This document shows positions 30,670-31,668 of a stretch of DNA of 64,000 nucleotides, one piece after another. The stretch comes from an uncultured Phycisphaerae bacterium. Its GTDB lineage: Bacteria; Planctomycetota; Phycisphaerae; UBA1845; PWPN01. The position numbers and the translations under genes were made by a program. Numbering within the stretch: the first letter of the stretch is position 1; every line of letters starts with the position of its first letter. The notes under the pieces are model-generated. The model was not told where the DNA came from and did not search any database. It was given only the letters and a program-made list of their open reading frames with translations. The DNA is taken from NCBI GenBank assembly GCA_938005315.1, contig CALLOB010000014.1, forward strand, positions 3,705-67,704, read 5' to 3'.

Positions 30670-31050
30670 CGCCCCCTGCGACGCAGCGCGTCCGCCAGGA
30701 GGGCCCCGCTCTGTCGGGGCCGCCGGAATGGACACGAGAAAGCCCGTGATATGTTTCCCCAGGACCGGGGGCGCGACGGAGCGCGTCCCTCCGGAAGATG
30801 GATTCGGACAGCCCGACGGCGGACGCGACGGAGCGCGTCCCTCCGGGGGCCGCCGATCCCGGCGCGACGCGGTGCGTTTCATCGGAGGGCCCCGCTCTGT
30901 CGGGGCCGCCGGAATGGACACGAGAAAGCCCGTGATATGTTTCCCCCAGGACCGGGGGCGCGACGGATCGCGTCCCTCGCGGGGCCGCAGACGGGGACGC
31001 GAGGGAGCACGTCCCTGCAGGGTCGTGGATCGGGACGCTACTGTCGCCCG
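30670..31050. repeat. About 1.9 tandem units of a 186-187-bp repeat, on the tRNA-Ala 3' side
   Basis: ggccccgctctgtcggggcc at 30702 and 30888. gggcgcgacgga(g/t)cgcgtcc at 30769 and 30956. ggacgcgacggagcgcgtcc at 30821, with a diverged version at 30994..31015. A 1-nt indel (tttcccc vs tttccccc) separates the units. Confidence 0.85.
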
Positions 31051-31160
31051 CCGTCCTGGCTCAGGCGAGTGGCTCTACCGGCTTTAGGTACTGGGTCTAC
31101 TGCCGCTTCGCGCCGCGGGCCGTGTTCGTAAGCCTTGCAAGAAAAGGAAATTGCAGTCAA

Positions 31161-31233
31161 TGGAGCCGATGAGATTCGAACTCACGACCTCTTGCATGCC
31201 ATGCAAGCGCTCTCCCAACTGAGCTACGGCCCC
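31161..31233 (-). tRNA. tRNA-Ala (anticodon GGC)
   Basis: Reverse complement reads GGGGCCGTAGCTCAGTTGGGAGAGCGCTTGCATGGCATGCAAGAGGTCGTGAGTTCGAATCTCATCGGCTCCA. Full cloverleaf, G3:U70 Ala identity pair, anticodon loop AT-GGC-AT, TTCGAAT T-loop. CCA is not encoded. Confidence 0.92.
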
Positions 31234-31294
31234 GGGGAAGCTTTCGTGTCACCTTTCCGGTCGGGACGCGGCTGACCGGCGTCCACGAGGCACT

Positions 31295-31323
31295 ATTAGA
31301 CCGCCAAGGAGGCGGTCCGTCAA
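31295..31323 (-). promoter_or_regulatory. Putative sigma70-type promoter of tRNA-Ala
   Basis: On the minus strand, TTGACG (31323..31318), 17 nt, then TCTAAT (31300..31295). This lies about 60 nt upstream of the mature tRNA 5' end. Confidence 0.35.
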
Positions 31324-31394
31324 GGGCGGCTGATGGCTGGTCGGGAAGCCGGGTTCGTGGCAAGTCAGGGACCACGCGTCGCTCGGGGGGGCCG

Positions 31395-31668
31395 GGCGAA
31401 GGGGCGCGACGGAGCGCGTCCCTCCGGAGGATGGATTCGGACCGCGTGACGGCGGACGCGACGGAGCGCGTCCCTCCGGGGGCCGCCGATCGCGGCGCGA
31501 CGCGGCGCGTTTCATCGGAGGGCCCCGCTCTGTCGGGGCCGCCGGAATGGACACGAGAAAGCCCGCGATATGTTTCCCCGAGGACCGGGGACGCGACGGA
31601 GCGCGTCCCTCCGGAGGATGGATTCGGACCGCGCGACGGCGGACGCGACGGAGCGCGTCCCTCCGGGG
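31395..31668. repeat. About 1.5 tandem units of the same 186-187-bp repeat, on the tRNA-Ala 5' side
   Basis: Hairpins at 31402, 31454, 31521, 31589 and 31641. Same plus-strand orientation and near-identical sequence to 30670..31050. Confidence 0.85.

Follow-up and report, generated by a model that had tools for sequence, protein, structure and literature searches.

A 64,000-nucleotide stretch of DNA (here called the window) from an uncultured Phycisphaerae bacterium (assembly GCA_938005315.1, contig CALLOB010000014.1) was found to carry, in the gap between two convergent genes, an array of 186-187-nt repeats that is interrupted by a tRNA-Ala(GGC) gene. We read this gap, with a probability of roughly 60%, as a cluster of palindromes like the repetitive extragenic palindromes (REPs) of other bacteria, arranged in the manner of a bacterial interspersed mosaic element (BIME), inside which the tRNA gene happens to lie. 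The repeats are built of a tagged hairpin whose stem covaries; the hairpin is dispersed in extragenic positions, is paired in inverted orientation with hairpins of a different stem, and was recently amplified at this locus (95-99% identity). The presence of the cluster is lineage-specific, and the cluster lies at a point of rearrangement.

The repeated module is 24 nt long and consists of an unpaired tag, (T)GGAG, followed by a 7-bp G+C-rich stem (GGNNNNG/CNNNNCC) and a 6-nt loop, CTC(C/T)GT. Each 186-187-nt unit holds three copies, one forward (A) and two reverse (B1 and B2). Module A (stem GGCCCCG) is followed by a spacer of lower G+C content and then by the two reverse modules (stem GGACGCG), which are 52 nt apart and read GGACGCG-ACGGAG-CGCGTCC, then CTCC, on the plus strand. 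A covariance model was built from diverse members of the module and used to search the window with filters off. By this approach, 14 matches were detected at E<0.05, confined to three intergenic places, with ten strong and two degenerate matches in the array. The module also accounted for 8 of the 16 perfect hairpins of 7-bp stem and 6-nt loop in the whole window. Taken together, the array is a BIME-like mosaic, in which differing REPs alternate in orientation and recur in tandem with a period of 186-187 nt.

Two head-to-tail units were found at positions 30678-~31025 and 1.5 units at 31387-31668, with the tRNA gene in between (Table 1). A repeat search returned a 211-nt ungapped direct repeat (30768-30978 = 31401-31611) of 95% identity at a spacing of 633 nt, as well as families of 94-95-nt repeats at spacings of 186 and 187 nt. 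Canonical copies were 97-99% identical for A and 95-97% identical for B. At the end of the left array, the B block at 30957-31025 was degenerate, with 71% identity to canonical B. An earlier, sequence-only reading of this DNA had described near-identical units on both sides of the tRNA gene that differ by a 1-nt indel and cannot be conserved coding sequence, and these points were borne out. The indel distinguishes CCCCAGG in unit L1 from CCCCCAGG in unit L2, none of the six open reading frames (ORFs) overlapping the arrays had a Pfam match, and one array ORF was without homologue among 5.8 billion proteins. The array repeat is real, far beyond chance and non-coding. The gap of ~1.15 kb, described as mostly filled with repeats, was measured at 1149 bp between the stop of the left gene (30615) and that of the right gene (31765), of which the arrays occupy ~630 bp. 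The proposed start of the right array at 31395 falls within the interval found here (31387-31403), and the left edge was shifted from 30670 to 30678-30699. As to the proposed check for tandem repeats, the repeat search recovered the 186/187-nt spacings, and Tandem Repeats Finder listed no period of 186 nt at the locus because each side holds fewer than two clean contiguous copies. The claim that a one-way unit is oriented against the tRNA was not upheld: each unit mixes a forward A with reverse B1 and B2, so that nothing can be learned from how it is oriented towards the tRNA.

Pairing within the module was tested with an anchor on tag and loop only (GGAG-N7-CTCCGT) and with the instances used as search seeds excluded, which avoids circularity. 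By this approach, the next 7 nt were found to pair (at least 6 of 7 positions Watson-Crick) in 46 of 55 such instances, which represent at least 16 different stems, compared to 14 of 169 instances for permuted loops. Double-sided changes were present at 5 of the 7 pairs in a curated alignment, which was chosen for pairing and is illustrative only. The GGAG tag stood ahead of 173 of the 184 hairpins and GTAG ahead of 2 of the 184, with no matching CTCC on the 3' side. For loci below 55% G+C, to which this count was limited since length-based ORF calling is reliable there, 32 of 35 modules were outside ORFs, and ORFs cover 81% of that sequence.

The arrangement of neighbouring modules was found to follow a common grammar. 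Adjacent modules were inverted in 72 cases (46 with tags outward and 26 with tags inward) versus 24 in direct orientation, and the commonest gaps of the tags-outward pairs were 8-13 nt. Inverted neighbours carried different stems in 61 of 64 cases, direct neighbours shared a stem in 12 of 16, and the usual partner stem of GGACGCG was GGCCACG. The window obeys the same stem rule, in that A differs from B and B1 equals B2. Tandem forms were also seen elsewhere: four head-to-tail GGACGCG hairpins at an exact period of 36 nt, after which comes a long simple repeat of the CATTCATC type (locus L082, 4700-4840), and an array with a 63-nt period, alternating stems GGCAACG/GGATGAC and a single orientation on an IMG/VR contig (L193, 838-1050). 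The latter array directly precedes the start of a gene with a ribosome-binding site of its own. In Smithellaceae, Verrucomicrobiota and Lentisphaerota, head-to-head pairs were enclosed in a palindrome of ~135 nt with an A-rich spacer and terminal inverted repeats of 20-22 nt (GAGGCTCTTGCAAAACCCCTGC / GCAGGGGTTTTGCAAGAGCCTC), which had no Rfam match (L060, ~2725-2870; also L003, L014, L037, L042, L045, L054 and L066). This ~135-nt palindromic element could be a miniature inverted-repeat transposable element (MITE), a hairpin-forming REP doublet (REPIN) or a three-way-junction RNA.

We further examined the distribution of the module beyond the window by scanning one genome per species (596 Gb) for the 23-mer GACGCGNCGGAGCGCGTCCCTCC. 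The exact 23-mer was detected in at least 116 stretches from many phyla, compared to a chance expectation of ~0.07 in 596 Gb. Carriers among the matches listed were Verrucomicrobiota (Chthoniobacterales, Opitutales), Kiritimatiellia, Lentisphaerota, Planctomycetota (Brocadiaceae, Pirellulales, Planctomycetaceae), Desulfobacterota (Smithellaceae, Syntrophaceae and others), Chloroflexota, Fermentibacteria and Eisenbacteria, and some assembled genomes among these matches had the module on at least 10 contigs. The hairpin loci had unrelated flanks of varying G+C content, and the genes beside the modules were ordinary housekeeping genes with no family in common. The pattern GGAGGG-N5-CTCCGT-N5-CC was also found on IMG/VR viral contigs, where 53 of 136 matches formed paired hairpins, with stems such as GGACGAC, GGCAACG and GGACGGC. 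At the gathering score, Rfam returned one tRNA and nothing else for 17 other hairpin loci. The 186-nt composite itself was sought with an A-specific 20-mer in JGI metagenomes, which gave one unrelated chance match, and a lookup of two array ORFs for other assemblies of the array found nothing. tRNA genes were not enriched near modules (12 in 797 kb of hairpin loci, about the typical tRNA density), and the repeat cluster is not tRNA-specific.

Table 1. Repeat units, hairpin modules and neighbouring genes in the window (positions count from the first nucleotide of the window).
Feature	Position	Strand	Evidence or remark
Unit L1, left array (A + B1 + B2)	30678..30863	+	First ~20 nt diverged, array edge
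Unit L2, left array: intact A module, then degenerate B block 30957-31025	30864..31025	+	
Unique 361-nt segment carrying the tRNA, without homology to the repeat unit	31026..31386		
tRNA-Ala, anticodon GGC	31161..31233	-	ARAGORN; Rfam tRNA, 66.2 bits
Partial unit R0, right array (B1 + B2 only)	31387..31496	+	
Unit R1, right array (A + B1 + B2)	31497..31668	+	
Module in A of L1 (GGAG GGCCCCG CTCTGT CGGGGCC)	30698..30721	+	Covariance-model match, 32.7 bits
Module B1 of L1 (GGAG GGACGCG CTCCGT CGCGCCC)	30769..30792	-	Hairpin listing, covariance model
Module B2 of L1 (GGAG GGACGCG CTCCGT CGCGTCC)	30821..30844	-	Hairpin listing, covariance model
Module in A of L2	30884..30907	+	Hairpin listing, covariance model
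Degenerate module B1 of L2	30952..30984	-	Covariance-model match, 16.5 bits, E 0.045
Degenerate module B2 of L2; loop CTCCCT, tag GCAG	30991..31023	-	Covariance-model match, 20.6 bits
Module B1 of R0	31402..31425	-	Hairpin listing, covariance model
Module B2 of R0	31454..31477	-	Hairpin listing, covariance model
Module in A of R1	31517..31540	+	Hairpin listing, covariance model
Module B1 of R1	31589..31612	-	Hairpin listing, covariance model
Module B2 of R1	31641..31664	-	Hairpin listing, covariance model
Solitary module (TTGGAG GGACGCG CTCCGT CGCGTCC)	16334..16366	-	Best covariance-model match, 44.6 bits
Diverged forward-reverse-reverse composite	11470..11584		Covariance-model matches at 11470 (+) and 11561 (-)
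Left flanking gene, glutamate-cysteine ligase family 2 (GCS2 family)	29077..30615	+	
Right flanking gene, Gfo/Idh/MocA oxidoreductase	31765..33108	-	

Outside the array, the window was found to carry two further occurrences. The solitary module is located between a minus-strand ornithine/arginine decarboxylase gene and a plus-strand BatA-like gene, in a divergent gap of promoter type as opposed to a 3' end. The diverged composite is located between a GGDEF gene and a T2SSE ATPase gene and reads GGAGGGCCCG-CTCCGT-CAGGTCC ... GGACGCG-AGGGAC-GGCGTCC ... GGACGCG-CCGGAG-CGCGTCC; a GAATGGA stretch after its first hairpin is common to this composite and the array unit.

The history of the locus was examined by comparison to the nearest relative, the only close one in the databases, whose flanks are 83-88% identical at the DNA level and lie on two different contigs. 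One contig (L242) is collinear with window positions 23237-30377 and then continues into a GH42-like gene; the other (L118) is collinear with 38440-31793, beyond which a 3-keto-disaccharide hydrolase gene follows. Left synteny ends at ~30377-30393, inside the 3' end of the GCS2-family gene, and right synteny resumes from 31793. Because the relative's flanks diverge on both sides, the 1.4 kb with the arrays and the tRNA gene is an exact synteny breakpoint. Both the array and the tRNA gene were absent from these two contigs. Downstream of both orthologous genes, the relative was found to have a REP-like repeat of its own (L242, 7362-7395; L118, 8800-8850) of the form CACGCGCAGCGCCGTA[G/C]CGGCCGGC-CTCCGT-GCCGG, or ...CGCAGCGCCGTA[G/C]CGGCCGGC-CTCCGT-GCCGG..., which has the same loop as the module, a different stem and a GTAG/GTAC-like tag. 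At the position of the right array, downstream of the oxidoreductase gene, the relative carries three tandem copies of CCACGGAAGGAGG (L118, 8470-8515).

The two array sides were found to be out of register. Homology to the unit stops at about phase 161 on the left and resumes at about phase 77-93 on the right, and ~100-120 nt of one unit is missing or replaced by the unique 361-nt segment. The 95-97% identity between left and right copies indicates recent exchange or duplication between the two sides. The sequence-only reading had offered two histories, expansion of the repeat around the tRNA gene or landing of the tRNA segment in an existing array, and neither fits cleanly in view of the phase break and the 633-nt spacing. 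The discontinuous phases, and a spacing of 633 nt that is not a multiple of 186-187, exclude that the tRNA segment was simply inserted into a continuous array.

When compared to the REPs and BIMEs of Enterobacteria, including the tandem arrays of BIME-2, the module is similar in being a short, G+C-rich, imperfect palindrome that is extragenic and has an unpaired conserved tetranucleotide at one end. As in Escherichia coli BIMEs (compare PMC3733652), neighbours alternate in orientation and stem type, like Y and Z REPs, spacers are conserved, and tandem clusters occur. By contrast to the enterobacterial elements, the module has a GGAG and not a GTAG tag, a conserved 6-nt loop, a 23-mer common to several phyla and copies on viral contigs; the amplified unit is a 186-nt composite of three hairpins, and no gene for a REP-associated tyrosine transposase (RAYT) was seen in a low-power search. 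Of the hallmarks of a REP in the broad sense, the module shows the short stem-loop palindrome and the one-sided unpaired tetranucleotide tag.

A further counterpart is provided by the GTAG/CGTC stem-loop superfamilies of Di Nocera et al. 2013 (PMC3733652), tagged hairpins with a stem of 6-9 bp and a short loop. Most dimers in these superfamilies are head-to-head or tail-to-tail, and heterodimers are frequent; clusters occur, dimers are sometimes placed in longer palindromes, some families are common to several species, and members are found in Planctomycetes and Verrucomicrobia (PMC3733652). The architecture, dimer grammar and palindrome nesting of the module match this description. The tag does not: the GTAG variants given are GYAG, GYRG, GTRG, GTMG and GTGG, and a GGAG tag is not mentioned in the available portion of the text (PMC3733652). 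Likewise, the strings CTCCGT and ACGGAG were absent from the supplements, and the REP-encoded peptides of O. terrae and R. baltica given there do not match the module (PMC3733652). A literature search by sequence strings and by REP/RAYT combined with names of the Planctomycetes-Verrucomicrobia-Chlamydiae (PVC) group returned nothing relevant besides this article. The GGAG-tagged hairpin is absent from Rfam and from the accessible part of the 2013 catalogue of tagged REPs, and an earlier description elsewhere is possible. Compared to REPINs and MITEs, the ~135-nt palindromes with their terminal inverted repeats are similar. The 186-nt unit of the window differs from these elements, since repeat search and alignment found no terminal inverted repeats or target-site duplications bounding it and since it is tandem, not dispersed; it is not classed as a MITE.

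Several observations weigh against a REP-like cluster. Whole units folded no better than shuffled sequence on either strand (z = -1.1, -1.5), and divergent (promoter) gaps showed no clear depletion of modules. A search of 1.8 Mb of hairpin loci (8-kb neighbourhoods) for a RAYT/Y1 transposase, of low power and with an approximate query, found none. For this search, ORFs were clustered over 116 loci, those that recur or are flanked by hairpins were compared to Pfam, and phmmer was run with an approximate E. coli RAYT sequence; ordinary genes alone were obtained. REPs are mostly lineage-specific, and the conservation of an exact 23-mer, stem included, across phyla and on viral contigs is unusual for them; this identity hints at a further constraint. 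The GGAG tag is also not the GTAG or CGTC of the catalogued superfamilies (PMC3733652).

The alternative that fares best is that the array is in part an artefact of a metagenome-assembled contig, by collapse or expansion of copy number or by misjoining of the flanks through near-identical units, and we consider this unlikely. Caution about the assembly, which the sequence-only reading had advised, was justified in that an independent short-read (Logan) contig of the same organism breaks off within unit R1, 119 bp beyond the stop of the oxidoreductase gene. This break is expected from a small k-mer size, however, and is uninformative on the true structure. The relative's two flanks are on different contigs that continue into other genes, and exact repeats of 63 and 59 bp exceed common assembler k-mer sizes. 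By contrast, the longest exact repeat, of 63 bp, remains shorter than a typical read, and the copies are distinct from one another (substitutions and a 1-nt indel, 95-99% identity), unlike a single collapsed copy.

Somewhat less likely still is that the module is an undescribed functional element common to several phyla, in which a conserved partner acting in trans keeps the tag, the loop and even the stem alleles from changing. Such a partner could be an unrecognised HUH-type mobilisation system that crosses phyla and passes onto phages, or an RNA-binding protein that reads ACGGAG/GGAGG. In that case the arrays would act as multivalent binding platforms, for example as sponge RNAs or as decoys for ribosomes or CsrA.

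It is very unlikely that the array represents small RNA genes serving as a sponge for a CsrA/RsmA-type protein, with plus-strand transcripts that start at a promoter in the A spacer and each carry two ACGGAG-hexaloop hairpins plus single-stranded GGA motifs. On the plus strand the B modules do display an A-N-GGA-N hexaloop (GGACGCG-ACGGAG-CGCGTCC), which we take to resemble the RsmE-hcnA and CsrB/RsmZ binding sites. About 11 GGA motifs occur per 186 nt of this strand, compared to 3-4 expected at this composition; CsrB and RsmZ likewise have many GGA motifs on one strand, several of them in such hexaloops. The A spacer includes TGGACA-N15-TG-A-TATGTT, which is similar to an extended -10 promoter. 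By contrast to these sponge RNAs, a scan of 30500-31900 found no promoter and no terminator-like site, the promoter-like stretch is missing from the diverged composite at 11470-11584, and the tRNA was the sole Rfam match at E<=10 over 30000-32500. Over 116 loci, modules showed no orientation bias relative to the flanking genes, and their usual arrangement in inverted pairs is a misfit with a strand-specific RNA site. No wobble bias was found for either strand (8 G:T, 4 A:C and 12 other mismatches, which are uninformative numbers). The lack of orientation bias, and of wobble bias as far as these numbers go, argues against a strand-specific RNA role.

Least probable is a mobile event, in which a tRNA segment inserted into an existing array or an integrative element attached at the tRNA gene: the array and tRNA gene do lie exactly at the two-sided synteny break and a 14-nt imperfect direct repeat flanks the tRNA gene (31030-31043 and 31261-31274), but a repeat of that size is often reached by chance, the unit phase is broken and the 633-nt spacing is not a unit multiple, the repeats exclude the tRNA 3' end, unlike the attL/attR repeats of tRNA-targeted elements, and neither an integrase or transposase among the called genes of the relative's orthologous neighbourhoods nor an integrase in the Pfam results for the adjacent genes was detected. 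Readings as Xer/dif-like sites, attC sites or clustered regularly interspaced short palindromic repeats (CRISPR) were rejected on architecture only, given the many covarying stem alleles, the single-sided tag and the irregular spacing.

If the locus is a REP-like cluster, its composite unit would have been amplified by unequal recombination or replication slippage between near-identical modules. The modules may spread like REPs and REPINs, as hairpins of single-stranded DNA on which an HUH/Y1-type transposase would act in trans. Any effect on the host would probably be generic and not specific to the tRNA, for example through strong hairpins that end the mRNAs of both convergent genes and surround the tRNA precursor, or through hot spots of recombination.

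With the cluster read in this manner, the apparent puzzle of the locus is removed: the repeats look like an ordinary group of intergenic hairpins, selfish or structural, and the tRNA gene, which has no functional tie to them, lies in this recombination-prone group where synteny breaks. More noteworthy than the tRNA locus is the cross-phylum GGAG-tagged hairpin, together with its partner: PVC bacteria, Desulfobacterota, Chloroflexota and other phyla, as well as viral contigs, have in common one small tagged hairpin in which the loop is conserved and a few stem alleles recur. If confirmed, this would extend the picture of tagged REPs beyond GTAG and CGTC, and it would raise the question of which enzyme or binding protein maintains one and the same 23-mer in different phyla. 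On the practical side, the modules break short-read assemblies and yield spurious ORFs in high-G+C genomes.

Additional observations were made on the genes and repeats around these hairpins. The best named matches to the flanking proteins of the array were 53-64% identical (Phycisphaerae, Acidobacteriota and others). In the GCS2-family gene, the 3' end (30377-30615) is not collinear with the relative, whose protein has 422 aa, and this extension holds a 30-nt tandem duplication (30485-30509, 30515-30539); the tail of the gene may have been remodelled by the same rearrangement that made the junction. Related phage contigs (L132, L133, L138, L160, L165, L173, L174 and L181) were found to carry an intragenic copy, GGAGGGACGACCTCCGTGTCGTCC, close to the end of a 131-aa ORF, within its final ~20 codons; the stop of this ORF overlaps the start of the next gene. 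In the Kiritimatiellia genome RGIG6996 (L005, L020, L039, L080, L091 and L099), the hairpin forms part of a longer non-coding repeat of another kind, at least 150 nt in length, which is present on many contigs and in which the ATG-led ORFs are short and inconsistent among copies.

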